Sequence record: MK373792.1
Direction: 5' to 3' (one strand)
Length of the DNA stretch: 64,000 nucleotides
Source: Escherichia phage vB_EcoS_VAH1
The translations under genes were made by a program, and so were the position numbers. Under the pieces are notes generated by a model. The model made no database searches. It saw nothing but the letters and a program-made list of their open reading frames with translations, and was not told the origin of the DNA. This document shows positions 41,847 to 60,682 of this stretch, in pieces. Positions within the stretch are counted from its first letter, which is position 1, and each line of letters opens with the position of its first letter.

Positions 41847-42057
41847 TATTATAATTGCTTTTATTATCGGGGTACTTGCGGGAATTTTCGGAATGACTGC
41901 GGCTATTAACAAGCATCGTAAGTATACTGCGGAAGTATCGCGGGAGATTGCGGAAAGGGAGCGGAAGTTTGACGAGAAACGTGCGGAGTTTGAGCGGGAG
42001 TGGAATGATGGTTCAAGAAGTTCTCGGAGGAGATTCAAGATAGATGGCAAATCATAA
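41839..42057 (+). CDS. small membrane protein (72 aa)
   Basis: N-terminal TM helix and a charged C-terminal tail. Confidence 0.5.
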   Translation: MFSIIIAFIIGVLAGIFGMTAAINKHRKYTAEVSREIAERERKFDEKRAEFEREWNDGSRSSRRRFKIDGKS

Positions 42058-42541
42058 ACCTCTACTTCCCTTAGCAGAATACCAGAAGAAATTTGATTAT
42101 GACCCTGAAACCGGTATGTTTACTTGGAATTCAGGGAGTCGTAAAGGTAAACCAGCAGGTAGTAGAAATAGTTCAGGAATATCCCTATCAATGGGTAGTA
42201 ATGGGCTATATAAGGCCCATCGGGTAGCGTATCTATACATGACAGGAGAAGACCCGGGTGAATTTCTCATTGATCACAAAGATCAAGACCCCTTCAACAA
42301 TAGGTGGAATAACTTACGTAAAGCAACAAATGCAGAGAATGGAAAAAACTCTTCGGGATGGAAGAATGAGTCTACAGGGGTTAAGGGAGTATATAAACGC
42401 GAGGAGGGAAAGTTCGAAGCAAAACTACGTGTAAATGGTAATAGAATTACCATAGGAACTTTTAAAACTCTTGAGCAGGCTGAAAAAGAACTTAGAAAAG
42501 CCAGGGAGCATTACCACGGTGAGTTTGCAAACCATAATTAA
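42044..42541 (+). CDS. HNH homing endonuclease
   Basis: PETGMFTWNSGSRKGKPAGS...YKAHRVAYLYMTGEDPGEFLIDHKDQDPFNNRWNNL; same family as 2199..2732 and 9787..10263. Confidence 0.8.
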   Translation: MANHKPLLPLAEYQKKFDYDPETGMFTWNSGSRKGKPAGSRNSSGISLSMGSNGLYKAHRVAYLYMTGEDPGEFLIDHKDQDPFNNRWNNLRKATNAENGKNSSGWKNESTGVKGVYKREEGKFEAKLRVNGNRITIGTFKTLEQAEKELRKAREHYHGEFANHN

Positions 42542-42716
42542 TTAGCGCTATTAACCTTTTTGCCAAATTCTTTGGATTACGTACGCGTGGGTGTGCTCAC
42601 TGCCACCGGCGAAAATACTTAGTCTGCTAACCGCCACCCCCGTTACTATTACCATGCTAACTGTTTCACCCTGCAACCATTTTAATTGCAAGGTGAAACA
42701 ATTTCAACTTTAATTA

Positions 42717-43451
42717 TTACGCAACTTTTAATTTCTCAATATACTGTTGCGGGCTGCAACTATATTCTGCGCGTTCTTCTTCAGTCATACCTTCCCAACA
42801 TAATTGCAAGCGATCGGCTAGGAACTGATAATCATTATCATCCTCAAGAGATTCGTCAATAAAGGTTTCACCTATCAATGTGACACCGATTGATAGAATA
42901 TCATTAACGGCTTGCGCGTCCAGCGTTTTAAATCCGTATGATGCCGCCGCTGCCAATACTCCCTTATGATCGTCGATCATCGTGAAATCAGCGTTCGGAT
43001 ATAGCTGTTTAAATAGCTCAAAGTAATGACTTTTATATATAGCGTCCTTACTGTGGTATATTTCGCTAACCTTATCAGCTTCAAAATATTTGTGAAGCGT
43101 ATCGCGGGAAAATACACGGATATTACTATTTCCACGCCCTCGCAGTCCTTGTTTGCGCAGGTAATAATAATCTGACTTGCTCATCAGTCGAGCGGTACAA
43201 ATAACGTTTAACGTGTTGGCGTCATTCATGCACTGGCGCATATATGTAACAAGCGGCAATAGTGTATCTTGCATTATTAAATCATGTTTGCAGGCTTCAT
43301 TTTTATACTTATTTAAATCTAAATTGCCCTCGCTATCAAAGCAAGGCGCTACGCGATGGAAAGAATTGATGATTGTTCCGTCCAGATCCCAAATCATGAC
43401 GCGGGAAATATGCGGGAAATTACGGGTAATATTCGTTTTAACTTGATTCAT
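42717..43451 (-). CDS. dmp: 5'-deoxyribonucleotidase, HAD-superfamily (T5 dmp-like)
   Basis: HAD motif I IWDLDGTI; 244 aa; adjacent to the A1/A2-like genes. Confidence 0.75.
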   Translation of the reverse strand: MNQVKTNITRNFPHISRVMIWDLDGTIINSFHRVAPCFDSEGNLDLNKYKNEACKHDLIMQDTLLPLVTYMRQCMNDANTLNVICTARLMSKSDYYYLRKQGLRGRGNSNIRVFSRDTLHKYFEADKVSEIYHSKDAIYKSHYFELFKQLYPNADFTMIDDHKGVLAAAASYGFKTLDAQAVNDILSIGVTLIGETFIDESLEDDNDYQFLADRLQLCWEGMTEEERAEYSCSPQQYIEKLKVA

Positions 43452-43491
43452 TTTGTTACGTTCTCCGTTTAAGGGATTAGATTAATTCAGC

Positions 43492-43518
43492 ATTGCCCGC
43501 TTATAAATAGCGGGCAAT
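43492..43518 (-). other. perfect 9-bp stem-loop downstream of the A2-like gene
   Basis: ATTGCCCGC-TTATAAATA-GCGGGCAAT; no U-tract follows on the minus strand. Confidence 0.4.
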
Positions 43519-43531
43519 AATAAATCAACTA

Positions 43532-43927
43532 TTAAAGACCATAAGCCAACGCATCAGCGATAAAACTAATATCCTCACCTGATACATCGGAACGGATGCC
43601 CGCGCATGTAAATACCTTCGCGCTCATTAGCTGATCATCAAGGCAAGCGGGGCAAGGCGCGACAACTGCAAAGGCTAGGCCTGATTTCACCGCGTCGATG
43701 ATAATCGTTTCCTGTTTTACCGTGTCAATGTAAACGCCTTTCGCCTTGATGCGGCTGGATAGTTTGCCCGTGGTATAGGCGAAAGTCGTGATCTGAAGCG
43801 CCTCGTTAAACTCCATCAAATCATCAACAACGTGACCGGCCTCAACGTGATACCGCTCACCATTTGAATAAACTAGGACGATGGAAGAATGAGCGCGATC
43901 GAATGGAATACGGTTATTAATAGCCAT
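43532..43927 (-). CDS. pre-early protein, A2-like by position
   Basis: 131-aa ORF immediately downstream of the A1-like gene; called by synteny with T5 only. Confidence 0.4.
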   Translation of the reverse strand: MAINNRIPFDRAHSSIVLVYSNGERYHVEAGHVVDDLMEFNEALQITTFAYTTGKLSSRIKAKGVYIDTVKQETIIIDAVKSGLAFAVVAPCPACLDDQLMSAKVFTCAGIRSDVSGEDISFIADALAYGL

Positions 43928-43996
43928 GTTTATAACTCCAATTAATTTAATAAACTTTTATAGCGGCGGTATATTTCATCCGCCCGCCTGATTTAA

Positions 43997-45661
43997 TTAC
44001 GAGAAAAATTTACCATTTTTAAAGTCGATCAAGGTGCGTTGACCGTTTGCATAGGTAATAACATGCGTTTGTGTCCAGCTTGACGCGCCAACGTTATAGC
44101 CCATATCAAGGGAACCAGACACGCCAGCGGTATAAACGCCGCCGTAGATGCTGGCGGTGTGAGTGTGCCCCGTGTTTAATTTGCCCAATTTCTTAAACTG
44201 TTTTGGATTTCCACGGCTCCCGTTAATGCCGTTGTGACCATGTACACCGCACTCAATGCCTGCAATCTTGAAAGATTGATCAGTCGTTAGGAAAATTGCG
44301 TTAAACTCACAACCTGCAACCTTGCGCAGCGCATAATCTAGCACGTTGAAGGTGTCATCTTTTTCTGCAATAGCTCCGTAAATCGCAGCATTAAGGCGGT
44401 GATACAGTTCCGCGTTGGCTGGGTCGTCTTTAATGTTGGCGTTACGATCATCCAGCCAACGTGATAGCGCCAGATCGTGATTAGATTCAACAATGATTGT
44501 TTGACTAAAATCACGTTCCATCGATTCCAGCACGCGCCCCGTATCGATAAGATCATCCAGAACTTTATCACGTCCGGCTGCATATTGTTTTGCTAGGAAT
44601 ACACCGGACGCACGATTATGATGATTGCGCGATGTAAAATCATGCACGTCATGGATAAACTGATATTTTGGTTTAAGAATATCAAGCAAGCTATTTTCGC
44701 CAGCCCATGACGCAGCGGCGCAATCGTCATCTAATTTTTCGGCGTGTATGTCACCGTATTGTAAACCTAAAACATGCCCCGATGTTTCATAGCATCCTGC
44801 GGGAGTAGCGCAAACATTCAGATCATAAAACACGCCGCTTTCGTCCATCGTTTCAAGCTGGCGCACAAAAAACTCACCGTCTTCGTCGAACTCAACAATA
44901 AGCGCACCGAAGTTATGCAGCGCCTCGGCCTTTTGTCCTGCTTTCTGCTGGATGTAATTTTTTAGCGTCGCCGTGCCGGTTGAATACATACGGCGTACTA
45001 CTTCACCTTTTAAAGCTGGAACGCTTTCGGCGGTGATTTTAGCGTGACCAATTGCCAGACCTTCAAGATTAAGCGCGGTTGCAGTTTCAGCGAATCCAGA
45101 AAGCGGATAATCTGCGGTGGGCAAAACATTAATTTCAGCCATGAAAGCAAAGCGGCGATTGTTTAAAAACACGTTTTTATTGCAGATATATTTGTCAAAC
45201 GCGGAATCATATTTGATTCCGTCAGCACCTTCCCCATTTTGAAAACCGTTTTTATTATAAATATACTTGCTAACCAGCAAATCAGCGCCAATAAATTGGG
45301 CATATTGTTCAAGCGAGGCTAAAAAGTTTTTATGCGGGAAAGTATTATTCTGAATCGATGTAATAATAAAGCGTTTACCTTGTTTTACTTCCCAGCTTTC
45401 CACCGTGCTAGAAATAACTCCAGCGGCTTCAGGGCGGTCATCGTTTTTTATGGCTTTTGCTACTTTCGCCGCTTTTGGTTTCGCTGGTTTATTTGCTTCC
45501 AACCAGTCACAAATCGCGGTCGAGTGTTTTGTAGTATCATAGACCGCTTTTGAAATATCGTCGCAGACTTCCAGTTTAGTAGCGCGCAGACGTTTACCGT
45601 AGAAATTGAAATCAGCGGCCATTTTCAGGATAACGGTTTGTTTTTCTGCGGAAATAATCAT
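43997..45661 (-). CDS. A1: pre-early A1-like protein with calcineurin-like metallophosphoesterase motifs
   Basis: 554 aa; metallophosphoesterase-like motifs GDIH, ESNHD, GHTHT; higher GC than the surrounding genome. Confidence 0.7.
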   Translation of the reverse strand: MIISAEKQTVILKMAADFNFYGKRLRATKLEVCDDISKAVYDTTKHSTAICDWLEANKPAKPKAAKVAKAIKNDDRPEAAGVISSTVESWEVKQGKRFIITSIQNNTFPHKNFLASLEQYAQFIGADLLVSKYIYNKNGFQNGEGADGIKYDSAFDKYICNKNVFLNNRRFAFMAEINVLPTADYPLSGFAETATALNLEGLAIGHAKITAESVPALKGEVVRRMYSTGTATLKNYIQQKAGQKAEALHNFGALIVEFDEDGEFFVRQLETMDESGVFYDLNVCATPAGCYETSGHVLGLQYGDIHAEKLDDDCAAASWAGENSLLDILKPKYQFIHDVHDFTSRNHHNRASGVFLAKQYAAGRDKVLDDLIDTGRVLESMERDFSQTIIVESNHDLALSRWLDDRNANIKDDPANAELYHRLNAAIYGAIAEKDDTFNVLDYALRKVAGCEFNAIFLTTDQSFKIAGIECGVHGHNGINGSRGNPKQFKKLGKLNTGHTHTASIYGGVYTAGVSGSLDMGYNVGASSWTQTHVITYANGQRTLIDFKNGKFFS

Positions 45662-45757
45662 ATTAATAAAACTCCATTAAAGGGATTAAAAACGTTTGTT
45701 ATTGGCAAATATTGCCAAATATAACGCCTTGAATAATAGGCGTTATAATTTGCAACA

Positions 45758-45955
45758 TTAATTTAAAGGCATAAGGCTAGAACTAACACCACAAGCAACG
45801 GCAACAATAAAGCAAAGTAAGCCTAAACGCTTCGCTAGTTTAGATTTACGTTTAAAATAATATGAATCTAAATCATTTTGAAAATAAGCAAATAATAATG
45901 AGGCCGCCATAATAAATAAGCCTAGAATGAGGGATTCAGTAGGGTAAAAGATCAT
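45758..45955 (-). CDS. small membrane protein
   Basis: 65 aa with two predicted TM helices. Confidence 0.45.
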   Translation of the reverse strand: MIFYPTESLILGLFIMAASLLFAYFQNDLDSYYFKRKSKLAKRLGLLCFIVAVACGVSSSLMPLN

Positions 45956-46011
45956 TTTAAAACTCCAGTCAAAGGGAAATTATAGTGGGGAATATTCCCC
46001 ACTAATTAAAT

Positions 46012-46428
46012 TTATTCACCTGCGGCCTGTTTTACTTCATCGGCAACGCCCAATAGTTGCGCCACGGCGTCCAGCGTTTCCAATTTTGCGCTTTCCAGTG
46101 ATGCCAGATCGTCAGCGTCTTTGATAATGCCGGAATCGATGGCATGTTTTGCAATGACGCGTACATAATGCGCCTTGCGAATTGAACTGCCGCCGCCAAC
46201 TTTGCGCGGCTTATCGCTTTTCTGATACGCTTTTGCGCTGGTCAATTTTGAGCGAACAGACACGGGAGAAGCCGCGCCAACTGTTTTTGCAATCTCTTTC
46301 AGGCCGTCGCTGTTAGCGAACTCCAAGCCGTTTTCATTGATGAGCTGTTGATACATGGTAACAGCCTGTTGGGTGTTTTCTTCATTCCATGCGAATTTTG
46401 CGGATTTTTCGGTTTTAACGTTAGCCAT
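46012..46428 (-). CDS. hypothetical pre-early protein
   Basis: 138-aa ORF with RBS GGAG; preceded by an operator-like palindrome. Confidence 0.5.
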   Translation of the reverse strand: MANVKTEKSAKFAWNEENTQQAVTMYQQLINENGLEFANSDGLKEIAKTVGAASPVSVRSKLTSAKAYQKSDKPRKVGGGSSIRKAHYVRVIAKHAIDSGIIKDADDLASLESAKLETLDAVAQLLGVADEVKQAAGE

Positions 46429-46463
46429 GATTGTAACTCCTATCGATTTAATTTAAGGGATAA

Positions 46464-46512
46464 GATTAACATAATGTTAATCGTTATATACCCCGAACTA
46501 CTGGGGTATATA
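46464..46512. promoter_or_regulatory. operator-like 19-bp palindrome plus 10-bp-stem hairpin
   Basis: GATTAACAT-A-ATGTTAATC (46464-46482) and TATATACCCC-GAACTACT-GGGGTATATA (46485-46512). Confidence 0.45.
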
Positions 46513-46526
46513 AAAGTAACACTAAA

Positions 46527-46778
46527 TTACGCTACAGCTTCCCATTTTTCGTTGCGCTGGATAACCTTTACAACGTCGCCGGATTTAACCCGAACGCTAT
46601 AAATAGTTTTTCCGTTGTTACTCCGTTCCGTTTCAGCGTATACCGCGTCAATCACATCAAACGGCATAAGCGCCGCGCCTTTGATGCGTTCGGCCTTTCC
46701 GGTTAATTCGTCCGTTTTAGTAACGAAAGGGATGAAAACGGATTGACCAATTTTTGGCGCATTAGTAACGTTTTTCAT
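46527..46778 (-). CDS. hypothetical pre-early protein
   Basis: 83-aa ORF with RBS GGAG. Confidence 0.5.
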   Translation of the reverse strand: MKNVTNAPKIGQSVFIPFVTKTDELTGKAERIKGAALMPFDVIDAVYAETERSNNGKTIYSVRVKSGDVVKVIQRNEKWEAVA

Positions 46779-47010
46779 GGTATAAACTCCAGTTTATTCA
46801 GTGGATTGTTCCGCATTACCTGCTGTAAAAATAGTGGCAGGTAATAAGTAACAATCCGCTCGCCATTATAATCAATTTAAAGAACTCCTCTCAGGCCGCT
46901 ATATCCCAGTTAGGGGGCGGGGCACATTATGGTAAGTGCCGACCGTCAAATTGTATCAAGTTATCGCTCTTATCGAACTGGGTACATCTTAAAGCCTATC
47001 GGCTAGGGTG

Positions 47011-47214
47011 TCAAACAATTTTTTGCAGTTTTTTATGATTTTCTTTCAAGTCAATCATAATGTTTCGCCAGATCATTTCCAGACCTTGCTGGCGGCCTTT
47101 CTTGTACTGCGTGAATCTATATTTTACGGATTGCTGAGCTATTGTCAACAATTTTTTAGTAGTACCATCCAATTTTTTGGCGGGTTTACCAGTGATCAAT
47201 AAAGTTTGTTTCAT
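47011..47214 (-). CDS. hypothetical basic small protein
   Basis: 67-aa Lys-rich ORF. Confidence 0.4.
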   Translation of the reverse strand: MKQTLLITGKPAKKLDGTTKKLLTIAQQSVKYRFTQYKKGRQQGLEMIWRNIMIDLKENHKKLQKIV

Positions 47215-47715
47215 ATCTGCGATTCCTTATATTATATAAGTTTTCCGCCGATAGACTTTAAGATATACCCAATTTTTAAAGAGCGCGGCGGTAAACTTCC
47301 CCGCCGTTGTAGTCCGTTGCCGTCCTACGAGATAAATAATAGGTGATTCCCAAAAATGGCGCAACCTTATTTTTGTAAAGAAACGTAAAGAAAGCAAATA
47401 ATCGCAGGGTGTCCGGCGATTGCCTAAGTTTAAAGGAAACGGGCGCGCGAATACCATAAAACCGAGCAGATAGGCAAGTAATTTTTTCATTTATATTTGC
47501 TTTGCCCTACTTGACAAATCTTAAAAAGCTCGTGGTAGCGATAAACGAGGGTAGGCAATGCAATGGCATACCTGAAAATTTTACCGCTTTCTAGGGCGTT
47601 TTAGGCGGCTCATTTTCGATTTAACAAATATTTAACAAAAGCAAAATTGAAAAATAGTTTGAAAAGGTATTGACTTTTTAAAATCAAGACTAAACGAGTT
47701 ATTTTATAAAATTAA

Positions 47716-48234
47716 TTAATTGACAATTCCAAATTCAGCTTTTTTAGTTTCTACCCATAATAATAACTCTTGTAAATCATAACCTGATTTACTAACACTT
47801 TTGTTACTAGTAGGATCTTTAACTATAGCGCGCAAATAGTTTCTTCCGTTATTATCAACTCTAGAACCATTATAATAGATATGCTTAGGCAACTTATTAG
47901 CACGCTTATAATCTTTCTTGTTATTCATATTCTGCTTATGATCTACTAAGCGAAGATTATTAATGTTATTATTAGCACGGTTACGATCATTATGATCGAT
48001 TGTTAGATTGCTATCAATCTCACCATTAAATAATACCCATATTATTCTATGCACTGCGTATTGTTCGCCTGCTAACTTTACTCGATAGTAACCTGTGTTA
48101 CTATAATGCCCTGCAATATCACCCACCTTACTATTACCTTTCTGTACTTTCCACCTTAGAAATGATGGGGATGTTTCATCATAATAAAAGTTATCATTAG
48201 CAAGCGAATAATCTATATCTTTAAATAGACCCAT
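47716..48234 (-). CDS. HNH homing endonuclease
   Basis: YAVHRIIWVLFNGEIDSNLTIDHNDRNRANNNINNLRL HNH motif; AP2-like C-terminal domain. Confidence 0.75.
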   Translation of the reverse strand: MGLFKDIDYSLANDNFYYDETSPSFLRWKVQKGNSKVGDIAGHYSNTGYYRVKLAGEQYAVHRIIWVLFNGEIDSNLTIDHNDRNRANNNINNLRLVDHKQNMNNKKDYKRANKLPKHIYYNGSRVDNNGRNYLRAIVKDPTSNKSVSKSGYDLQELLLWVETKKAEFGIVN

Positions 48235-48425
48235 TGTTATAGTTTCCTTATGTTATTAGTTTAATCTCTATTATATTATATCAAAATCATTAGCAGACTA
48301 CCTAATGAGTTTTTCAGGTTTAATTAGCAGACTCATAATCACTCTAAAAACCTATTAGCCAACTAACTATATTTTATTATATAATAACAACATAAATTAG
48401 TTAGTGAGAAACACTATCATTTAAG

Positions 48426-48533
48426 TTATCCACAGGTTTATACATTTTGTAAATTTGATTGACACAATAGGAAGGCTTTATAGCACTTTTACACAGACTT
48501 ATCCACAGGTTATTCCACTGTATAAATATACAG
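48426..48533. promoter_or_regulatory. DnaA-box pair plus 16-bp palindrome module (copy 1)
   Basis: TTATCCACA at 48426-48434 and 48499-48507; palindrome CTGTATAAATATACAG at 48518-48533. Confidence 0.55.
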
Positions 48534-48799
48534 GGTAAAGGGGAAGCATATTATAATGATGCCCAAAATAAGCGGCCTAAAACGCTTTCTAACGAGCTAA
48601 ATGCGGTGGGGTAATATTAAAGTAAAGCCTTCACCCGTCGCCCTGGTGGCTTCACCGTGTTTTGCTCTTTACTGTACCGCTGCGCGGTTAGCATAAAACT
48701 AGGCGTTAGGCAAGGAAAATAAAAAGGTAAAATAATATTTGCCTATGCTAGAAAATTACCTTTACCATTCACTCACCGATTAACGAGGGAGGCCAACAA

Positions 48800-49777
48800 A
48801 TGAGGCTGTATAAACCAGATAACGCAACCGTCTTAAAAGGTGCGCTGCGTAACCTGCTGGACGGTAGCAGAACAACCAGCATCAAACATTTTGTTAACAA
48901 GGCCGAAGATATTCACCAAAACTTTTTTGATGATTTCGATGCCTATGATATGAGTAGTTTTTTGCAACTGTATAAGCAAGGGGCAACGATTATCTTGTAT
49001 AATCGAGATAATCACTTGCTTACTAGCAGGGGGCCGGATACTGATTTTATAATCGTAAAAGGTAGCATAGTAAAAGCCTATGATACTGGGGCGGGCTTAG
49101 AAGTTTTTTCAATAGAAAATTATGAAGCCAACCCCAATGATCTTTATGACGTAGAAAATTTTCTCGATTCATTTTGGCGTTATTTATCAGTTGGCTGGAA
49201 TCGGTCAATTGGTGACGGGTATCGTCTGGCGGCTGTAATGGCTTTTGATGACGATGGCAATTTTTTGCTACCACGGGAGCTATACCCATATGTATATGAT
49301 GGCGACATCGAAAGCGCGGGCTTTTCTTTCTGGAAGGAGGAGGATCAGCCTATTGACAACACGGAAAAACATGCTGTAAATTCTAACACTCAAACCATTG
49401 AAAACAAAGGAAAAAATGCCATGACCAAGATCGCTAATATCGTTGCCGCTAATAAGTCCGCCGTTGTAAATGCTGCAAAACTGGAAGCGGGTAAAATTGC
49501 ACTGACTCAAATTACGAAAGTAGCGGCTAAAAAAGCACCGTTTATTATCAAGGGTTATATTGATACGCCGATTGGTCGGGTAGTGATTGCCAACCTGCTG
49601 AGCGTAGCGGTTGACCAGTACGCCCCAAGTAACCAAAAGGCGAAAGCGGTAGCGGATGCAGCTATGGAAGCGGCTATGTTAGAAATGGTGCAATCTTTTA
49701 ACATTGCTGAGATGATTGATGAAATGGTGAAAGGTATTGATATTTCTACTTTTACCGTTAACACCGAAAACGAGTAA
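48800..49777 (+). CDS. hypothetical protein (pre-early region)
   Basis: 325-aa ORF with RBS GAGGGAGG; no recognisable motifs. Confidence 0.55.
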   Translation: MRLYKPDNATVLKGALRNLLDGSRTTSIKHFVNKAEDIHQNFFDDFDAYDMSSFLQLYKQGATIILYNRDNHLLTSRGPDTDFIIVKGSIVKAYDTGAGLEVFSIENYEANPNDLYDVENFLDSFWRYLSVGWNRSIGDGYRLAAVMAFDDDGNFLLPRELYPYVYDGDIESAGFSFWKEEDQPIDNTEKHAVNSNTQTIENKGKNAMTKIANIVAANKSAVVNAAKLEAGKIALTQITKVAAKKAPFIIKGYIDTPIGRVVIANLLSVAVDQYAPSNQKAKAVADAAMEAAMLEMVQSFNIAEMIDEMVKGIDISTFTVNTENE

Positions 49778-49897
49778 TAGTTAACCTAGTGTAAAGTTTT
49801 GTAAAGGTCGCCATAATCGGCGGCCTTTTTTGTTATAATGCCTTTACACCGTTCGAGGACGGTTGAAAATTTTCCCAAAAAATTTTGGAGGCTTAAA

Positions 49898-50128
49898 ATG
49901 GTTGCATATTCTTCTTCTGACGCTCTTTTCACTGGAAAAGGCTGGGTATCAAATCGCTGGATCATTCAAGAAATGGTGCAAGAATACGGCATTGCTAAAA
50001 CTTACACTACCATTCAGGCGCTTTATGATAATGATCAAATTGATCAGCAAACAGCGGGCTTTTTGCTGGATACCCTGAAGGCGGAACATTGCACTAAAAA
50101 ACAAGCTGCAAAAATTATTTTAATGTAA
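49898..50128 (+). CDS. hypothetical small protein
   Basis: RBS TGGAGG before ATG 49898; the ORF-track start at 49838 is an upstream in-frame Met without an RBS. Confidence 0.45.
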   Translation: MVAYSSSDALFTGKGWVSNRWIIQEMVQEYGIAKTYTTIQALYDNDQIDQQTAGFLLDTLKAEHCTKKQAAKIILM

Positions 50129-50177
50129 GTAATAACGGGGGATATACAGTATCCCCCACTAACTAGGGGAAATAAAA

Positions 50178-50324
50178 ATGGTTATTTTTCGGTCAATTCT
50201 AGCGGGTATCTTGGGCGCTATTTTATCCCTTTTTGCAATAGCTTTCGACGTTCACGCGGTTACTATTGGCGCGGGTATCGCTGTTTTTTCTTATTTGCTG
50301 GGCTGCATGAGTAAAGGAGAATAA
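50178..50324 (+). CDS. small membrane protein (48 aa)
   Basis: RBS AGGGGA; two hydrophobic helices; preceded by hairpin GGGGGATA-TACAG-TATCCCCC. Confidence 0.4.
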   Translation: MVIFRSILAGILGAILSLFAIAFDVHAVTIGAGIAVFSYLLGCMSKGE

Positions 50325-50326
50325 AA

Positions 50327-50539
50327 ATGATTCGTAACGTTTCCCTTGCCCGTTCCAAAGGCTTTAAGCTGGTGGACGTTAACACGTTCGAACGGGAAGA
50401 CTGTAAAATCGAATATATAGCACGGAATAAAAACGCCTTTCGTGTTACAGAAAAGAAATTTGATAAGCGTGGCAACGTGATAGCTGAAAAGGTTAAATAT
50501 TTTGCCACCTTTTACGCTGCATTTCGTGGGGTACTATGA
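50327..50539 (+). CDS. hypothetical small protein
   Basis: 70-aa ORF tightly packed after the previous gene. Confidence 0.45.
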   Translation: MIRNVSLARSKGFKLVDVNTFEREDCKIEYIARNKNAFRVTEKKFDKRGNVIAEKVKYFATFYAAFRGVL

Positions 50540-50766
50540 AAAGCGTTGTTGTTATTATCCTTGCAATGGTTGGCGGTTTTACTGCCACCTTATTTAAGAA
50601 TGATCCCCTTTTACTGGGGATTTTTATGCTTTTATCTGGTTATCTGATTGGGAGGCTAACAAATGATTCAACAAATTAAAAGGGCGTTCCAATATTGGGG
50701 CGTCCTGCCTTCAATCGGTTTTATTCTGATAATCATTAGTCAGCTAATGATTATAGGCGGAACTAT

Positions 50767-51126
50767 TTGGGAGCTATGCAAATGGTAATTTATGAGGGCA
50801 ATCGCTTTGTTACTAATTGCCGTCCGGCATTGTTAGCAAACTACTTAAACCAGCTTTCACCTGAATATAAGGGCGTCATTAATATTTACGAGGGAAAAGC
50901 GCATTATAAAATCAATGCGGTCGTTGCCCGTGAACTAGCGTTTCAATTTTTAACCTTTGCATCGTGTGATATTCAGGTCATGGGTGAGGCATTAATTGCA
51001 GAAAATGAAGACGATTTTATTAATATTTTTCGCAAGGTGTGCACCGAGCGCCTGATCATGAAAGGCGCATATATTCAATCAACGGCGGATAGTATTGAAA
51101 CAGCGTTTCGAAAGGTGGCGCAATGA
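50767..51126 (+). CDS. hypothetical protein
   Basis: 119-aa ORF. Confidence 0.5.
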   Translation: MGAMQMVIYEGNRFVTNCRPALLANYLNQLSPEYKGVINIYEGKAHYKINAVVARELAFQFLTFASCDIQVMGEALIAENEDDFINIFRKVCTERLIMKGAYIQSTADSIETAFRKVAQ

Positions 51127-51227
51127 GATTATATATTTTCATTGGTAATGTTAAGGCTGCAAATGATTCCGCCGGGGGCGATAATGTTCGCCACTATTGG
51201 CAAAATTATATTTACTAGGGCGTTATT

Positions 51228-51422
51228 ATGAGCAATAAAATTATTGTAACCAAAACTACCACAATGGTTGACGTTTTTTATGTGCCCGATACGCTGGAAA
51301 ACCGGCAAGCGGTCGAGCGTGGCGAGTATGATAAAGTGATTTATGATCACGATGGTTATTATAAGCATTTGGTGGATTCCTACGGGGAGGAGGAAAAAAT
51401 CACGCATCAATTACCGGACTGA
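51228..51422 (+). CDS. hypothetical small protein
   Basis: 64-aa ORF with an acidic C-terminus. Confidence 0.45.
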   Translation: MSNKIIVTKTTTMVDVFYVPDTLENRQAVERGEYDKVIYDHDGYYKHLVDSYGEEEKITHQLPD

Positions 51423-51661
51423 CAACAAGCGGGGCGCAACTATCAGGGAGTGCCCCCAATTCTCAAATGAGAATGATTCTCATTTGACCGCGCCCGCGAT
51501 GGTTAGCCTGCTAATGATTAGGGTGTTACGTGTCGCCTTGTGTGATAGTTAGCGAGCTAACTAATTTTCAAGCCTCCTCCAATTTTGCCCTTGTTTTAGT
51601 ATCCCCATCAAAATAAAACGCGTTAGAATGCGATTCAGGGCGTTTTAGGCCTATATTAGAA

Positions 51662-51789
51662 TTATCCACTGTGTAGGAATACTGTATAAATATACAGTAG
51701 GATAAGCTGTGGATAAGTCTGTTGATAACGCTTCAAAATGGCTAGAATTCTGTCAAGGCAAATCGTGCTGTTGATAAGTCTGTGGATAA
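51662..51789. promoter_or_regulatory. cluster of five DnaA-box-like sites plus 16-bp palindrome (copy 2)
   Basis: TTATCCACT (51662-51670), TGTGGATAA (51708-51716, 51781-51789), TGTTGATAA (51720-51728, 51769-51777); palindrome CTGTATAAATATACAG at 51682-51697. Confidence 0.6.
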
Positions 51790-51814
51790 CTTAAATAACA
51801 GTGTTTCTCACTTC

Positions 51815-51980
51815 CATTCTTAAATGAGAATCATTATCATTCGTATTCCACTTTTTAAATGAGAATCATTTCACTTTTTAAATGAGAATCATTTCACTTT
51901 TTAAATGAGAATCATTCCCTTTCTTAAATGCGAATCATTATCATTCGCATTTCACTTTTTAAATGAGATTGATTCTCATT
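51815..51980. repeat. tandem array of about six ~21-bp repeats (consensus TCACTTTTTAAATGAGAATCATT)
   Basis: Direct reading: repeated TTAAATGAGAATCATT cores with sub-repeats CATTATCATTCGCATT. Confidence 0.75.
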
Positions 51981-51999
51981 ATCATTCGCATTCAGGCGA

Positions 52000-52017
52000 G
52001 CAGGGCAATTGCCCTGC
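52000..52017. other. perfect 18-bp palindrome GCAGGGCAATTGCCCTGC
   Basis: Perfect dyad, followed by a short T-run (GCTTTTG). Confidence 0.5.
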
Positions 52018-52022
52018 GCTTT

Positions 52023-52803
52023 TGTGCAAATCCGACATTTGCTCCAAGGGTTACGTGCTGGCGTGTATGTGCGAATCCGACAATTTTTGGTAGTGTGCAA
52101 ATCCGACCCGAAAAATTTTTATAGTGTGCGAATCCGACAATGAATTTTCCCAAAAACTCCAGCAATCACGAACTGCGTTCGAATCCTGTGGGATATGTGC
52201 AAATCCGACACGGTTTTTCTAGGATTAAGATGTGCGAATCCTACAAGATTTTTGTGACTTCGATGAGAGGGTGTGTGATTGTATAGGTTTGAGGAGAAGT
52301 TGAGAGAGCGAGAAAAATTTGGGGAGCTAGAAGGATGTGGGCGCAGGATTGGTGCGAAGCACCTGATTTGCGGGGATTTTGGGGAAGAGTTGAGATAATT
52401 TGGGGAAATTTGAGATAGGTGCAGAAAAAGTAAAATTTTATTAGCAAAATGGGGCAAAATAGCTTGACAAGTGAAAATTCTTGTGGCTCTAAAAACTCAG
52501 GCAATCATGGGCCTTCGGCCCGAAATAATGCTGCTATTTTCAGGAGAGTAAGAGTTCCTAAAAACTTAGGCGTTTGTGCAAATCCGACCATAAATTTCTA
52601 GAAATGCAGTGTGCAAATCCGACAGTAATTTCTGGAAATGTGTTTTCAAAAAATGTCTCCTAGAAATAACCGCCCTCCCTATAACCGCCCTGTATTAAAC
52701 CGCCTAGTATATGTAACGTTGGAGAGAAACTGCCCTAGAATATGTGCAAATCCGATGAATATTTTTGTGCTTATCAATTTCCTAGAATATGTGCAAATCC
52801 GAT
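52023..52803 (+). repeat. dispersed array of ten 15-bp iterons, consensus TGTGC(A/G)AATCCGACA
   Basis: Copies at 52023, 52068, 52095, 52125, 52196, 52231, 52575, 52610, 52743 and 52790, all in the same orientation. The last two lie in a duplicated ~35-bp unit; TGTGCTTATCAATTTCCTAGAA is also duplicated. Confidence 0.75.
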
Positions 52804-53176
52804 GAATATTTTTGTGTGATCTCTAGAATTTGTGCTTATCAATTTCCTAGAAACTTAGGAGTCTAGAAGAAAGTGTTGTGCCATCCTAGCAGATGAGCGG
52901 CAACCGGTGTATCATCTTGAACACAGATATTGCCTTTAAATATTATAAGGTAAATTAAAAGTAAAGTAGCCCCCATTACATGTGTGCTTACTCGTGGGGC
53001 GCGTGATTAATTACGTAAGTCCTCGACTGTCATACCCCTGTTGCTCGGTCGCAAAGAGTTAACGAAGTCTCGTGTAATAATCATCGCCCCTAGAGTTCAA
53101 AACAAGAGTTGTTTTTAATCTATGTGATTATTATAACATGTGCCGCAATGAGTTGTCAAGAAGATTTTGTTAACTT

Positions 53177-53560
53177 TTATTCCTCCTCTTCGAGATTGGT
53201 ATTGGGATCGTAAATTTTCTTGGCTCCTGTATTTAATAGGAATCGCTCTGCAAGTTGTGGGTGAATATCAAAGAACTCTGTGCATCCTTCGAATCCCTTT
53301 AAATTACAGCGGTATTTCTTAAAGTAGATATGAGCAGCGGCTTCTAGATCTCTAGGATTATGGGTTTCATAAATCCCATACACGTATAAATCGTCAAAAC
53401 CTCGATAGACTATCTTATCTAAGTTTAGTGTTTGAATCCTATTATGTGGATTCATACTGATACCGATCTTTGTTCTTTTAGGGATCTTCGTCAGATCCCT
53501 ATTTGCAAGAATATATACTTTATATAGTGACATTCTTTCTAGCCTTGAGTTTGATACCAA
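53177..53560 (-). CDS. T5orf172 (GIY-YIG-like) domain protein
   Basis: KVYILANRD...KIGIS...RIQTLNLD...YVYGIYETHNP...GCTEFFDIH matches the T5orf172 domain pattern; TTG/ATG start ambiguous. Confidence 0.6.
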   Translation of the reverse strand: MVSNSRLERMSLYKVYILANRDLTKIPKRTKIGISMNPHNRIQTLNLDKIVYRGFDDLYVYGIYETHNPRDLEAAAHIYFKKYRCNLKGFEGCTEFFDIHPQLAERFLLNTGAKKIYDPNTNLEEEE

Positions 53561-54236
53561 GAGATGCGAAGTAGATATAAGTTGCTAAATAGGACATAGC
53601 AGATCCTGTCTCTTCGTAAGAGAGAGTTCCTTTCACGTACCTCTTATATTCTGGCTCTAGATTAATAATCGTAGTACTTGGCAATCCTAGCGAATTACAT
53701 AATGATTTGAATGTTTCTTTATCTCTATGAATCGCATAGTGAATGGCTTTCTCCATTGGAGTTAACTCTAGATCTTTGGTAATGGCTACATGCAAACTCG
53801 CTATAGTCATGCCAATCCCACGATACGTTTCTTCTTTATTAAGGGAAGGTCTCTGTTTTTCTAGCTCAGGAAGATGTGCAAATTCTCCCTTCTTTCTAGG
53901 AATCTTATCATCACTAAGTAATGCTGTTAAGAAATCTGTTTCTTCATAGGCTGGGAGCACTTCATCAATTAATACTAGAATAGAGCTAGCATTGATACCT
54001 TTCGCACTAGGATCTAAAGATTTTAATGCTTTATTAGTTTCAACGTAGGAGCCTGCTAACACAACTTTTGAGCTATTCCGATCATATTTAATTTTATTCG
54101 CTTCCCAACGCGCAGGACGATAATCAGATAGAAACATTACCGCATACTTTTGTTCATCTGTTAGCTCGGAGAAACATTTCTGGTTTGATTCTTTTGCTAG
54201 CGCAATAAGGTGCTTTAGTTTTTCTGCTTTATTCAT
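53520..54236 (-). CDS. hypothetical protein (possibly the N-terminal part of the T5orf172 protein)
   Basis: 238-aa ORF overlapping the downstream ORF by 41 nt in another frame. Confidence 0.5.
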   Translation of the reverse strand: MNKAEKLKHLIALAKESNQKCFSELTDEQKYAVMFLSDYRPARWEANKIKYDRNSSKVVLAGSYVETNKALKSLDPSAKGINASSILVLIDEVLPAYEETDFLTALLSDDKIPRKKGEFAHLPELEKQRPSLNKEETYRGIGMTIASLHVAITKDLELTPMEKAIHYAIHRDKETFKSLCNSLGLPSTTIINLEPEYKRYVKGTLSYEETGSAMSYLATYIYFASLGIKLKARKNVTI

Positions 54237-54238
54237 TG

Positions 54239-54628
54239 TTAGACCTCCTGAGCTTTATCTTCTGTATAGAAATCTTCGGTAGCTTGATAATGTAATGTAA
54301 AGAATTCAAAAGACAGGCAATCTGATGCTGTATTTTGAATGTATCTTAATTCATTAATAAAGGATTCTTTGAAGATCTTACGGTTAGGTTTTAGTTCTAT
54401 CAGTTGGTTAATAAGCTCATCGATTAATTCTATTGCATCATCTATATACTCATCCATAAATACTGGGGATTCATAGATTATTTCTTCAACTCCGTTAGTA
54501 ACTAAAGCGACTACAATTACCTCTCCCGTAGTTTCTTCAGGGTAAAGATAACCTGAATCTACTTTACGAACAGTAACGCGAGTTTGGCTAGTAATTTGAC
54601 GATTTATAGCAATAATATAATGTAACAT
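54239..54628 (-). CDS. hypothetical acidic protein
   Basis: 129-aa ORF. Confidence 0.5.
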   Translation of the reverse strand: MLHYIIAINRQITSQTRVTVRKVDSGYLYPEETTGEVIVVALVTNGVEEIIYESPVFMDEYIDDAIELIDELINQLIELKPNRKIFKESFINELRYIQNTASDCLSFEFFTLHYQATEDFYTEDKAQEV

Positions 54629-54702
54629 AAATTCTCCTAATATGCCTCTCCTATTAAAAGGTCTGGAGAGGCGTAGACCTATAAATTAGTTAACGATCTT
54701 TA

Positions 54703-55296
54703 TTAATCCTTTTTACTTTCGTTAATAACAGCTCCCAGTGCTTCCATAATTGTATCTTCTAGACTTCCATGTTTATCAGGATTGCTTAAGTGAATAGTAT
54801 ATGAGTTCCTAGAAACTCCAGAGTCCACAGGTGCTACGCTTTTCATGTCAGATTCAAAAGCTTCTTGAGTATGTTTCAACTGTGCAGAAGGTCCATAATC
54901 TTCACCAAACTTATATGACTGCGTACTACTTACCACACCCCCACAAGGAACATTGTGCAAATCCGATGATTTATTTAGCATTGAGATTGTCCCTGACTGC
55001 CACGGATCTCTAATAGTCACAGGAGTACTAGGACGGTTCACCTCAGTCTTCACGAGTTTATAGCCAGCATCTATTAATGCGTTAATAAGGTTATCAGCTG
55101 GAATGCGAGCCTTGCCAAAAATCTCACGAGCGTTGTTGAGCCTACCTTCAAAACCTTTACATGCTCTAATATTAGTGTGTGCAAAGGTTAGCTTCATAGA
55201 TTTGAATTGTACAGTAGCAGTTAAATCTTTAAAGCTATAATCCCATGTGTTCAGTTCATGGTCTGGTACTACTTGAATAGGTTGTTGTGTAAACAT
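54703..55296 (-). CDS. hypothetical protein
   Basis: 197-aa ORF. Confidence 0.5.
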   Translation of the reverse strand: MFTQQPIQVVPDHELNTWDYSFKDLTATVQFKSMKLTFAHTNIRACKGFEGRLNNAREIFGKARIPADNLINALIDAGYKLVKTEVNRPSTPVTIRDPWQSGTISMLNKSSDLHNVPCGGVVSSTQSYKFGEDYGPSAQLKHTQEAFESDMKSVAPVDSGVSRNSYTIHLSNPDKHGSLEDTIMEALGAVINESKKD

Positions 55297-55481
55297 TATT
55301 TATTCTCCAGTTTGTCTAACAGTTTATGGGCTGCTAGATTATATTGTTTGAGTTCACGATTAAGGATTTGGTTCTCACACTTTAGTTCTATGTTCTCCTT
55401 ATTAAGAATACTACAGATTAATAGGAGTGCTAATATAACTACTAACGAACCTACGAGCATTAAAAGAAAAAGAGTTTCCAT
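55296..55481 (-). CDS. small membrane protein
   Basis: 61 aa; TM helix plus coiled-coil tail. Confidence 0.4.
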   Translation of the reverse strand: METLFLLMLVGSLVVILALLLICSILNKENIELKCENQILNRELKQYNLAAHKLLDKLENK

Positions 55482-55714
55482 TATTTAATTCCCATATAGC
55501 GTTTGAGATACGTGATGAAGTCTTCCGCTGTATGCGCTACGCTACCTTGAGCTACAAATACTTTTAAGGTCGCTCGCTGTAGTTTAAGGGTAGCCAACTC
55601 ACCACGTAATTTTGTTATATCTTCAGCTAGTTCTCTAGCTCTGCGCATAATAGCAAATGATACAAATGTTACAATAAATAACATAACTGCTAAAATAATT
55701 ACTATGATCTCCAT
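55481..55714 (-). CDS. small membrane protein
   Basis: 77 aa; N-terminal TM helix. Confidence 0.4.
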   Translation of the reverse strand: MEIIVIILAVMLFIVTFVSFAIMRRARELAEDITKLRGELATLKLQRATLKVFVAQGSVAHTAEDFITYLKRYMGIK

Positions 55715-55992
55715 ATTAACATCCAGCTCTTATCGTATATTTGGGCATGTTCTACTAATTCATTTATCGATGTAGAATTATCGTAGATACCCTCTAGTAA
55801 ACGTTTTCTGTCAAATTTATCAACCAAGTACTCTGTGCCATTTATCACTACCCTATACAGCTCTGGAACTAAGGGGTGTTTGTTTGGTATTGGACGACTA
55901 CCTAAGTCTATTTCATTATACCCCCACGTTGTTTTAAATAGTTTATTACTAAGTGCTGCTAGTGGGTTTGACCATACAATATAGCTACTCAC
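55702..55992 (-). CDS. hypothetical protein
   Basis: 96-aa ORF. Confidence 0.45.
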   Translation of the reverse strand: MSSYIVWSNPLAALSNKLFKTTWGYNEIDLGSRPIPNKHPLVPELYRVVINGTEYLVDKFDRKRLLEGIYDNSTSINELVEHAQIYDKSWMLIWRS

Positions 55993-56431
55993 TACTTATC
56001 TCCATTCTTAACTTTGAAAACTTATTATACCAAACTATGTGATTATCGTCAATTACAAATTTATGGTAACATGCTGGTACGGTATAAGTTCCATAATCCG
56101 TGACACGCTGCACAACCTTGTGTGCACACAGTCGACACCCATGCCCTTCTAAATGAGATCTAGCAGTTTGCCAGTAATAACCATCATGATCTGGACAATA
56201 GATCTCGACTTGCTGTTGCATTGTCTTATAATTTACACGCTCATACCCGAAGAAAGCTCCATGAGCTGCAATGGCTTTCTTGATAAATATAAGGTTTAGT
56301 GCTTCTTGTTGAAAGTCGGGGTGTAGTTGCTTAATCTTAGTTCTATTAATAGACCCATCCGATTTGATGAACCTATTTATTGGGAAGTTGTTAGCTTCCT
56401 CGATTAATAATTCATTTACTTTCTCTCTCAT
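55985..56431 (-). CDS. hypothetical Cys/His-rich protein (putative zinc-binding)
   Basis: CPDHDGYYWQ...HGCRLCAH; start set at the internal ATG at 56429-56431, 2 nt downstream of the upstream gene's stop codon. Confidence 0.45.
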   Translation of the reverse strand: MREKVNELLIEEANNFPINRFIKSDGSINRTKIKQLHPDFQQEALNLIFIKKAIAAHGAFFGYERVNYKTMQQQVEIYCPDHDGYYWQTARSHLEGHGCRLCAHKVVQRVTDYGTYTVPACYHKFVIDDNHIVWYNKFSKLRMEISSE

Positions 56432-56432
56432 A

Positions 56433-56636
56433 TTATATACTCTCACAACTAAGGTGGAAACATTCGTAAGCATCCCCAGTAAACTCTTTATCTTGTAATA
56501 AGCACTTAGCCTGGTCTTCCGGTACTCCAGCATCTAATAATTGTTGTTTACTTGGCTTTTCAGCGAATACTTTTACAAAGTACTCACCATCTTGATTATA
56601 CTCATTTATATCTCTAGTAAGGACATATACTTGCAT
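56433..56636 (-). CDS. hypothetical small protein
   Basis: 67-aa ORF. Confidence 0.4.
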   Translation of the reverse strand: MQVYVLTRDINEYNQDGEYFVKVFAEKPSKQQLLDAGVPEDQAKCLLQDKEFTGDAYECFHLSCESI

Positions 56637-56692
56637 TTGAAGTTCCTTAAAAACATAAAAGGCCAGAACAACTAAGTCCTGGCCTCCTAAAA

Positions 56693-57064
56693 TTAATGAA
56701 GCTGTTTACCACTTCTTAACATAGTGGCCGTTTCCATAAGACCTAGCGTAGCATCACGCTTATTGATCTGTTTACCAAGTTCATCAGTACGTTTACTGAT
56801 GTAAGCATTAATAGCCATATTCATAGCTGTAGCGAGATCTTCTTTGGTTATCTCTTCATCGTCTAAAGCTAATTTAGCCAAAGAATCAAATGTGCTAGAG
56901 AGTCCTATAAGATCTGAGGTTTCTCCCGCCAAAATAAGATTAATATTATCTACTGTTACTTCTAGCATGGAGTTGACAATATCTTCACCGTCTATTAGAC
57001 CAGTTTCAATATTACTCTCCCACTCCTTCATCTGCTCCAATAATGGATTTTTCTTTTCTGTCAT
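56693..57064 (-). CDS. hypothetical protein
   Basis: Start set at the Met of MTEKKNPLLEQ; the ORF-track start at 57130 overlaps the upstream gene. Confidence 0.45.
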   Translation of the reverse strand: MTEKKNPLLEQMKEWESNIETGLIDGEDIVNSMLEVTVDNINLILAGETSDLIGLSSTFDSLAKLALDDEEITKEDLATAMNMAINAYISKRTDELGKQINKRDATLGLMETATMLRSGKQLH

Positions 57065-57473: not shown

Positions 57474-57670
57474 TTACGAACCCCGTTAATCGCCATAATG
57501 ATGCCTTCATACATAAAAGGAAGTAACCCAGAAGTATAGAATATATTTTCTGTTATTTCTAGATGTCGAAAAAGTATATTAAATAATGCTGTTAGAAATA
57601 CAATCTGAGGCAGTAATACAAAATACTCAGTTACAATCTTTGGTGCCTGATAAACAAGACGTTTTACCAT
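57470..57670 (-). CDS. small membrane protein
   Basis: 66 aa, hydrophobic. Confidence 0.4.
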   Translation of the reverse strand: MVKRLVYQAPKIVTEYFVLLPQIVFLTALFNILFRHLEITENIFYTSGLLPFMYEGIIMAINGVRK

Positions 57671-57769
57671 TGTTTTTAAGTCTCCTTATTACTTTGGCCT
57701 GCTCCACAATAATGAAAACTGCGAGCACTAATAGTGCTATTAGCCCCGCAGTAATTGGTACTAAATCAA

Positions 57770-60665: not shown

Positions 60666-60682
60666 TTACTCCTTTTTTTGTA

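Follow-up and report, generated by a model that had tools for sequence, protein, structure and literature searches.

We analyzed positions 42,717-51,422 of a 64,000-nucleotide (nt) stretch, referred to here as the window, from Escherichia phage vB_EcoS_VAH1 (MK373792.1). Gene order and orthology indicate that this block is the coding part of a ~9.9-kb terminal repeat, the first-step-transfer (FST) DNA of a T5-like phage of the genus Tequintavirus, and that it forms a pre-early host-takeover module; we put the probability of this assignment at about 0.88. Orthology, synteny, the catalytic motifs of A1 and the compositional statistics are what the present analysis itself establishes. The biochemical roles of the proteins are taken from experiments on T5 and would apply here by orthology. 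The features of the locus are listed below, with open reading frames (ORFs), amino acid (aa) identities, isoelectric points (pI) and, where relevant, the grand average of hydropathy (GRAVY).

~42594..52489, no strand: terminal repeat (FST DNA), in the window apparently a single collapsed copy, flanked on the left by late genes (receptor-binding protein, llp) and on the right by early genes
42717..43451, minus strand: dmp, predicted deoxynucleoside-5'-monophosphatase (HAD-type); 97.5% aa identity to T5.001; phrog_415
43532..43927, minus strand: T5.002 homologue; 84% aa identity to T5.002, 96% to BF23_00177; phrog_4576
43997..45661, minus strand: A1; 95.3% aa identity to T5 A1; phrog_1745
45758..45955, minus strand: T5.005 homologue, small, with two predicted transmembrane segments; 96.9% aa identity to T5.005; phrog_4820 'membrane protein'; GRAVY 0.82
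46012..46428, minus strand: A2, predicted DNA-binding protein; 100% aa identity to BF23 A2, 93.5% to T5.006; phrog_1725 'DNA binding protein'
46527..46778, minus strand: T5.007 homologue (DUF7177); 91.6% aa identity to T5
47011..47214, minus strand: Hdi (T5.008), putative host division inhibitor; 98.5% aa identity to T5.008 over 67 aa; PF24188 (DUF7416) at 5.8e-37
47227..47490, minus strand: variable ORF in the T5.009 region, a candidate gene, 87 aa, pI 11; phrog_17446 over residues 1-58; 84% identity to BF23 over 73 aa, 56% to T5 4934-5182
47716..48234, minus strand: hegG, HNH homing endonuclease; PF13392 at 1.5e-15; 100% aa identity to T5 hegG
48403..48799, no strand: divergent promoter/repeat region between the operons; DnaA-box-like TTATCCACA at 48426 and 48499; left arms of ~40-nt inverted repeats
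48800..49777, plus strand: T5.011 homologue (DUF7566), 325 aa; PF24450 at 5e-108; 77.7% aa identity to T5.011, 100% to VAH1_00187
49898..50128, plus strand: T5.012 homologue, 76 aa; phrog_5145 from residue 21 of the longer ORF; 96.5% aa identity to T5
50178..50324, plus strand: T5.013 homologue, small hydrophobic putative membrane protein; phrog_5607; 64% aa identity to T5, 94% to BF23; GRAVY 1.56
50327..50539, plus strand: T5.014 homologue, 70 aa, basic, pI 10; phrog_4227; 95.7% aa identity to T5.014
50536..50679, plus strand: small hydrophobic ORF; phrog_19184; 88-91% aa identity to BF23/NBSal003; no match in T5 and not in the T5 annotation
50782..51126, plus strand: T5.015 homologue, 114 aa; phrog_4379 from residue 6 of the TTG-started ORF; 93.9% aa identity to T5.015
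51123..51218, plus strand: 31-aa ORF, probable remnant of the T5.016 region; phrog_22819; 87% aa identity to T5 8641-8733; full-length T5.016 is absent
51228..51422, plus strand: T5.017 homologue, 64 aa, acidic, pI 4.8; phrog_6973; 89% aa identity to T5.017
51423..52489, no strand: region equivalent to the injection stop signal, with DnaA-box-like sites, AATGAGAATCATT repeats, TGTGCAAATCCGAC repeats and a nick-site motif; outside 42717-51422 but in the same FST unit

The assignment is based mainly on comparison with annotated records of the T5 left terminal repeat, the BF23 right terminal repeat and NBSal003. The gene order is the same as that of T5.001-T5.017 (NC_005859), BF23 (OR083247) and NBSal003, and the ORFs pair one-to-one with 64-100% aa identity to T5 or BF23. 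As in T5-type FST regions, one strand encodes dmp, 002, A1, 005, A2, 007 and 008 and the opposite strand encodes 011 to 017; divergent promoters separate the two sets, and promoter-like sites are found at T5-equivalent places. A megablast search with 42000-52000 matched 533 phage records at 80-95% DNA identity, and in 137 of these the match extends over 80% or more of the query; the Tequintavirus genomes ESCO40, HdH2, NBSal003 and BF23 rank highest, at ~90-91% DNA identity. PHROG and/or Pfam assignments agree with the T5 gene map, some of the ORFs matching the Pfam DUF families DUF7177, DUF7416 and DUF7566, and each of the named ORFs has tens to hundreds of relatives.

An earlier note, made from the sequence alone, had called this the first-injected region of a T5-like phage and had listed its ORFs, and the synteny and the coordinates bear out both statements. 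Its labels for dmp and A1 were right. Its 'A2-like' gene was not, as the true A2 is the ORF at 46012-46428; the label had probably been given to 43532-43927, the T5.002 homologue, because this is the only ORF left for it. The description of the remaining ORFs as uncharacterized orphans does not hold, since they belong to PHROG or Pfam families and have counterparts in T5, and two of the five items listed as such are A2 and Hdi. The view that they are candidate host-takeover factors is correct in that several of the small genes are such factors in T5, but they are not undescribed, as their T5 homologues have already been cloned singly. Apart from the compositional details discussed below, the block is ordinary and has already been described in T5.

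The boundaries of the repeat were placed by alignment. On the left, T5 position 5 aligns to 42598 and the start of the BF23 right repeat maps to ~42593; on the right, the ends of the BF23 and NBSal003 records both map to 52489. The T5 alignment crosses the boundary between repeat and unique sequence unbroken, up to 52921, and the sequence to the right of the repeat is homologous to T5 10220-10608. The window contains one repeat copy, with the receptor-binding protein gene and llp on its left and the T5 10220-10608-like sequence on its right, suggesting that it is a collapsed or permuted representation and that the genome should carry the block at both ends. A second HNH gene (165 aa, PF13392), with 93% aa identity to its NBSal003 counterpart, occupies 42044-42541, outside the repeat and ~50 bp from its left boundary; BF23 and T5 have no such gene there.

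The non-coding parts of the unit also resemble T5. Strong promoter-like sites are located in or just 3' of the Hdi gene, as are P-H22 and P-D/E20 in T5: TTGACA-16-TAAAAT at 47148-47121, inside the gene, and TTGACA-17-TAAGAT at 47014-46986, inside or just downstream of it. The promoters of the region between the operons sit at equivalent places in T5, according to the T5 annotation. Two pairs of inverted repeats, I1 and I2, of ~40 nt and 88-90% complementarity, link 48403-48533 with 51682-51812 and thereby bracket the whole 011-017 operon; they are probably the repeat regions 2 and 3 of Davison. Each holds DnaA-box-like TTATCCACA / TGTGGATAA sites. Such sites are found at 48426, 48487, 48499, 51708 and 51781, those at 51708 and 51781 reading TGTGGATAA. 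Farther right, 51457-52852 contains the repeat families D1-D5 and inverted repeats expected of the injection-stop region of a T5-type FST DNA. These comprise seven AAATGAGAATCATT-type units, at least nine TGTGCAAATCCGAC copies, and exact copies of 36 nt (at 52734 and 52781) and 24 nt (at 52764 and 52829), and they run past the inferred repeat end at 52489. The region aligns to T5 9317-10608 at 88.6%. A G+C-rich hairpin, GCAGGGCAATTGCCCTGC followed by GC, lies at 52000-52022, and the minus strand at ~52020 has the sequence AAA|GCGCAGG, which agrees with the nick consensus of T5 (R/GCGCRGG) and aligns with the major single-chain interruption of T5 at 9748/9749.

The leftward operon contains A1. 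The window protein and 14 metagenomic relatives (36-47% identity) all keep the metallophosphoesterase residues GD304xH306, H337D338, N394H395D396, H474 and H499xH501 without change; together these make up the five motifs for metal binding (DxH, (G)D, GNH[DE], H, GHxH) of calcineurin-like, Mre11/SbcD-type metallophosphoesterases. Profile and structure databases did not add to this. A search against Pfam, even with E values up to 10, gave no family for A1 except a chance match to DUF4899, and a search against Protein Data Bank sequences gave nothing better than E=0.5. In T5, A1 is essential, is alone necessary and sufficient for degradation of the host chromosome, and is needed for second-step transfer and pre-early shut-off (Annor et al., 2026, bioRxiv 10.64898/2026.04.02.716235). 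It is also a reported trigger of retron Ec67. The loci of divergent A1 proteins (36-47% identity) in viral metagenomes yielded no other pre-early protein by tblastn.

The neighbours of A1 are assigned mainly by orthology. Dmp carries the DxDxT nucleophile motif of HAD enzymes near its N-terminus (DLDGT in MIWDLDGTII), in addition to being orthologous to T5 Dmp; the Pfam search gave no match, and phrog_415 is a phosphatase-like 'polynucleotide kinase' family. In searches of solved-structure sequences with A1, Dmp and the 011 homologue nothing was found, and Pfam searches relaxed to E values of up to 10 returned only chance-level matches for A1, Dmp, A2, 002, 012, 014, 015 and 017. A2 is essential and needed for second-step transfer, and it also triggers ColIb abortive infection, according to the literature on T5 and BF23. 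T5.002 is dispensable and non-toxic in T5, and T5.005 is dispensable (Annor et al., 2026). Hdi is clearly orthologous to T5.008, which acts on FtsZ (PMC10714956, from the same group as PMC8201957), and the same action may be expected here. T5.003, present in T5, is absent from the window, where the gap between 002 and A1 is only 69 bp.

The hegG gene lies between the two operons and combines an HNH_3 domain with a sporadic, mobile distribution, as expected of a homing endonuclease: it is present in 22 of 37 close loci and absent at the equivalent place in BF23 and NBSal003. It is a recent mobile insertion, because its nucleotide sequence is 99.6% identical to that of T5 hegG amid flanking DNA of 90-93% identity, and because its codon usage is typical of the phage and unlike that of its pre-early neighbours, with a G+C content at third codon positions (GC3) of 0.23 and with AGA, AGG, ATA and CTA making up 6.4% of its codons.

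In the rightward operon, the 011 homologue is followed by a terminator-like hairpin at 49803-49828. Two published screens in T5 bear on these genes. In one, 13 pre-early genes that had been without a function were cloned, and 008, 011 and 015 were found to be toxic (Mahata et al., 2021, PMC8201957). The other covered all 17 genes, as clones and by means of deletion phages; dmp, A1, hdi, hegG, 011, 013 and 015 were toxic, and 13 of the 17 genes were dispensable (Annor et al., 2026). In T5, 011 disturbs the nucleoid and is said to resist functional predictions, and 013, expressed alone, is toxic and lytic (Annor et al., 2026). T5.012 and T5.017 were non-toxic in the T5 screens. The 015 protein is described as a toxic nickase that cuts abasic (AP) sites made by the host Ung (Mahata et al., 2021). 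For this activity the sources conflict: RefSeq NC_005859 and PHROG 4227 give the label of Ung-dependent AP-site nickase to the 70-aa T5.014 family, and PMC8201957 gives it to T5.015, the 114-aa protein by locus tag. Orthologues of both are present in the window, so the nickase gene is present either way. The toxicity screen that the earlier note had asked for is thus already published, on near-identical T5 proteins.

Combining these data with the gene order suggests how the module might work. By orthology to T5, the block would be the first part of the genome to enter the cell, and injection would pause until A1 and A2 are made. The host sigma-70 RNA polymerase would transcribe the two divergent operons of the FST DNA. 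From the leftward operon (in the order Hdi, 007, A2, 005, A1, 002, Dmp), A1, a nuclease of the metallophosphoesterase type, would destroy the host chromosome, and Dmp would dephosphorylate the released deoxynucleoside monophosphates. Hdi would block division via FtsZ, and A1 and A2 together would admit the remaining genome. The rightward operon (011 to 017) would add accessory toxins, namely 011 acting on the nucleoid, 013 acting on the membrane and the Ung-dependent AP-site nickase. The mobile hegG would simply reside between the operons.

The base composition of the block provided the less expected results. The segment from dmp to A2 (42717-46428), which the earlier note had called visibly richer in G+C, has a G+C content of 42.8% against 38.6% in the window. 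This is above every non-overlapping window of the same size, and the claim is correct, although the rise is modest. The content of 42717-51422 as a whole is 40.4%, and the rise of ~4 points is uneven, the T5.005-like gene (32%), Hdi (35%) and hegG (32%) being low. The codon-usage analysis that had been proposed confirmed the rise and located it at third codon positions. GC3 is 0.42 in the leftward operon, 0.40 in the rightward operon and 0.28 in the other ORFs of the window (33 ORFs of at least 150 aa), whereas G+C at the first and second positions (GC1 and GC2) is not raised in the pre-early genes. The pre-early genes shun AGA, AGG, ATA and CTA and favour CGC, GCG and GGC. AGA and AGG account for 2% of arginine codons in the leftward operon and 15% in the rightward operon, against 42% elsewhere, and CGC accounts for 56% in the leftward operon against 7% elsewhere. 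In both operons, GCG makes up ~31% of alanine codons (8% elsewhere), GGC 37-41% of glycine codons (10% elsewhere) and ATA 8-10% of isoleucine codons (25% elsewhere). Compared gene by gene in Mann-Whitney tests (14 pre-early ORFs against 47 others of 100 aa or more), the difference is significant for GC3 (p=3e-6) and for the share of AGA, AGG, ATA and CTA (p=1e-4). T5 has the same pattern (p=5e-4 for GC3 and 4e-4 for the rare codons). The G+C rise thus stems from the choice among synonymous codons in the pre-early genes as a group and is no peculiarity of A1, A2 and dmp.

A likely reason for this codon choice is the timing of translation. In T5, the tRNA genes are located at 28-41 kb, in second-step DNA; they include those for Ile(CAU), Leu(UAG) and Arg and many whose anticodons begin with U. 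Since phage tRNA genes would enter only with the second-step DNA, the pre-early genes would be translated before any phage tRNA exists, and they appear to be tuned to the tRNA pool of the host. The general principle of such codon usage is known in other phages.

The oligonucleotide signature of the repeat (42594-52489) differs from that of the rest of the window as well. The observed/expected ratio of CpG is 1.29 against 0.71, GCGC occurs 5.56 times per kb against 0.76, and CGCG 3.44 times against 0.61; T5 has the same contrast in GC3, CpG and GCGC. Outside the repeat (1-42593 and 52490-64000), AGCT and CTAG occur 343 and 280 times against about 189 expected, and GCGC and CGCG are under-represented. 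Several short motifs are scarce in the repeat: CCWGG, the EcoRII/Dcm site, occurs once (at 48642) per 9.9 kb against 7-20 times in other windows, GTAC 11 times against 25-45, and CTNAG 10 times against 25-52. To separate these contrasts from codon choice, we shuffled synonymous codons in the pre-early genes 1000 times, keeping the amino acid sequence and the codon pool, and tested 16 motifs. Codon usage accounts for the levels of CGCG, CTAG, AGCT and GTAC, and we therefore rejected avoidance as the cause of the depletion of CTAG, AGCT and GTAC. GCGC exceeds what codon usage predicts, with 44 occurrences observed and 24.9+-4.1 in the shuffles; the same four bases form the core of the nick consensus given above for T5. 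Conversely, CCNGG is absent from the 6.1 kb of pre-early coding sequence although 8.0+-2.6 occurrences are expected from the shuffles, and CCWGG is absent where 4.9 are expected. The depletion of CTNAG and GGNCC is nominal only (p about 0.01 with 16 motifs tested). A broad avoidance of palindromes in the repeat was dropped as an explanation: hexamer palindromes have an observed/expected ratio of 0.73 against 0.85, and EcoRI and GATC sites are not depleted. Because the other palindromes are barely depleted or are explained by codon usage, we retained the avoidance of CCNGG only. As the FST DNA is the only restriction-sensitive part of the genome, avoidance of CCWGG in it would be a plausible passive protection. 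The absence of CCNGG from the pre-early genes beyond the codon-usage prediction thus suggests that FST DNA is protected from restriction at least partly in a passive way. Without repeat boundaries, the GCGC profiles of the metagenome loci with divergent A1 were uninformative.

One might ask whether the G+C, CpG and GCGC signature instead reflects acquisition of the block from a host-like or GC-richer source, not yet ameliorated and without translational selection. Such an origin would fit the sharp shift in CpG and GCGC near the repeat boundaries, which is also seen in T5, and the part of the GCGC excess that codon usage leaves over. It is hard to reconcile with the age of the block: A1 is a hallmark of all Demerecviridae (Annor et al., 2026), so the block is ancient, and an unameliorated signature would not last. 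Moreover, GC3 alone is raised, the codons avoided are specifically the four that are classically rare in E. coli, and both operons share the signature despite their varying gene content. We consider such an import improbable. A different doubt concerns the number of genes. The small ORFs at 47227-47490, 50536-50679, 50663-50788 and 51123-51218 may be chance frames, in which case the block contains fewer real genes. They are 31-87 aa long and variable among the 37 relatives (50663-50788 is present in 7, 51123-51218 in 12 and 50536-50679 in 20), 47227-47490 is split into two ORFs in BF23, and 50663-50788 has no PHROG match. The other three match PHROG families, however, the neighbouring small ORFs 012-017 are kept at 81-99% identity in about 25-35 of the 37 related loci, and proteomics of the relative Bas33 recovered ten pre-early proteins (Annor et al., 2026). 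That these four are chance frames is quite conceivable, but we lean slightly towards real genes.

The profile searches and models that the earlier note had proposed found families for the named ORFs and gave no function for the two proteins modelled, 011 and 007. The model of the 011 homologue (predicted local distance difference test, pLDDT, 85) suggests an alpha/beta head (residues 1-183) joined by a disordered linker to a conserved helical tail (207-320). Among 1.84 billion cluster representatives at 50% identity, the family has 694 relatives, most of which match the tail only. The tail (~120 residues) is always C-terminal, beneath heads of 0-413 residues, and among 116 sequences the heads fall into 47 groups unlinked by BLAST. 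A HIRAN domain serves as the head in 14 of 128 relatives, and one relative carries an ExoX-like C-terminal domain. One HIRAN-headed relative sits amid small early-type phage ORFs, and all relatives with any context lie in phage early-type regions. Comparison of the 011 head and tail with solved structures gave no convincing match, the head having no partner at all; a search of BFVD with the model returned only uncharacterized phage proteins, and a word-indexed search with the C-terminal module alone gave 8 close matches and no new architectures. The 007 protein is the most conserved function-less pre-early protein. Its homologue is modelled as a small, seven-stranded all-beta barrel (pLDDT 83), whose best but weak likenesses are SH3/Tudor/KOW-type domains, including the RNA-polymerase-binding Tudor domain of PcrA/UvrD and gp39 of phage P23-45.

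A dedicated inhibitor of restriction, CRISPR or other defences could be encoded among 002, 005, 007, 012, 014, 017 and the small membrane ORFs and confer the nuclease insensitivity of second-step DNA. In a 2023 study of BF23, restriction hit only sites within FST DNA, and the protective determinant was still unidentified; in the literature this determinant of insensitivity to restriction and CRISPR is placed among the pre-early genes. The idea that this block contains anti-defence genes is a long-published hypothesis (Davison), in which a pre-early gene, possibly T5p007, was proposed for restriction insensitivity. It gains some appeal from 002, 005 and 007, which at least 60% of Demerecviridae have retained although in a laboratory strain they are neither needed nor toxic, a pattern usual among counter-defence genes, and from the 007 model, as small beta-barrels are often used for binding proteins or nucleic acids. 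Other evidence speaks against it. No ORF matches a described anti-defence family in Pfam or PHROG, nor do the 011 and 007 models match a described anti-defence fold. A strongly acidic DNA mimic is not among the proteins, whose lowest pI values are 4.81 (017, net charge -6) and 4.85 (011, net charge -13 over 325 aa), and a search for mimics of the Ocr/ArdA type gave no Pfam or PHROG match and, for the two modelled proteins, no fold match. The destruction of host DNA by A1 may itself disable defences ('scorched earth'; Annor et al., 2026). The known anti-defence genes of T5-like phages, Rad and tRNAs including tRNA-Tyr, lie in the early tRNA region rather than in FST DNA, and Rad and tRNA-Tyr were rejected as anti-defence genes of the block for this reason. 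Overall, a dedicated inhibitor within the block is possible but rather doubtful. A broader combination is less likely still. In it, the insensitivity determinant would be among 007 (the beta-barrel), 002, 005, 012, 014 and 017; the 011 family would be a new class of modular effectors acting on DNA ends or the nucleoid, with HIRAN as a head that binds DNA 3' ends in about one-tenth of the relatives; and the CpG/GCGC contrast would mark the DNA to be destroyed or shut off from the DNA to be kept. Although we regard this combination as unlikely, the CpG/GCGC mark, if it exists, would bear on how T5 spares its own genome.

Our preferred reading, a T5-type FST module with host-adapted pre-early genes, has weak points of its own. 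All gene functions are transferred from T5 or BF23 orthologues. As the window contains one repeat copy, the duplication and the boundaries at ~42594 and 52489 rest on homology. The Pfam Metallophos model misses A1, whose enzyme class is thus suggested by the motifs and by published structure predictions, and the disagreement between RefSeq/PHROGs (T5.014 family) and the published work (T5.015) over the Ung-nickase label leaves two candidates for that role. The tRNA-timing account of codon usage draws on a comparison of codon shares, and it may fail in some relatives, as BF23 has been reported to lack tRNA-Arg. Finally, the GCGC excess is explained neither by codon usage nor by the FST model.

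Our analysis adds nothing to the T5 literature on the block itself, on which genes it contains, on the toxicity of their products or on the anti-restriction hypothesis, all of which have been published. Two classic questions about T5 are which pre-early function shields second-step DNA from nucleases and how the destruction driven by A1 spares phage DNA. Three results may serve as handles on them: the host-adapted, class-specific codon usage of the pre-early genes, the absence of CCNGG together with the excess of GCGC, and the head-swapping architecture of 011, which includes HIRAN. In the literature that could be searched, we came across no description of any of the three.

Among known systems, T5 itself (NC_005859) has the same gene order and orientation, two divergent operons, injection-stop repeats, DnaA-box-like sites and the nick motif. 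Compared with T5, T5.016 is cut to a 31-aa ORF in the window, an extra hydrophobic ORF (50536-50679) lies between 014 and 015, and 011 (78%), 013 (64%) and 002 (84%) are more diverged. BF23, NBSal003, HdH2 and ESCO40 are nearest overall, with ~90-91% DNA identity over the block, and A2 is identical to that of BF23. BF23 and NBSal003 share with the window the small ORF between 014 and 015; both lack hegG at this place, and BF23 has an additional 495-bp ORF after 011. Searches of Pfam and PHROG found no sequence kinship of the block proteins with Ocr, Gp0.4, Ndd, Alc and similar proteins, and the 011 and 007 models showed no kinship in fold. The class I block of T7 and the immediate-early blocks of T4 likewise encode small, mostly dispensable and often toxic proteins, which are made first from promoters of the host RNA polymerase and shut down host DNA, division and defences. 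Unlike the T7 and T4 blocks, the T5-type block is set apart by two-step injection and is duplicated at both genome ends.

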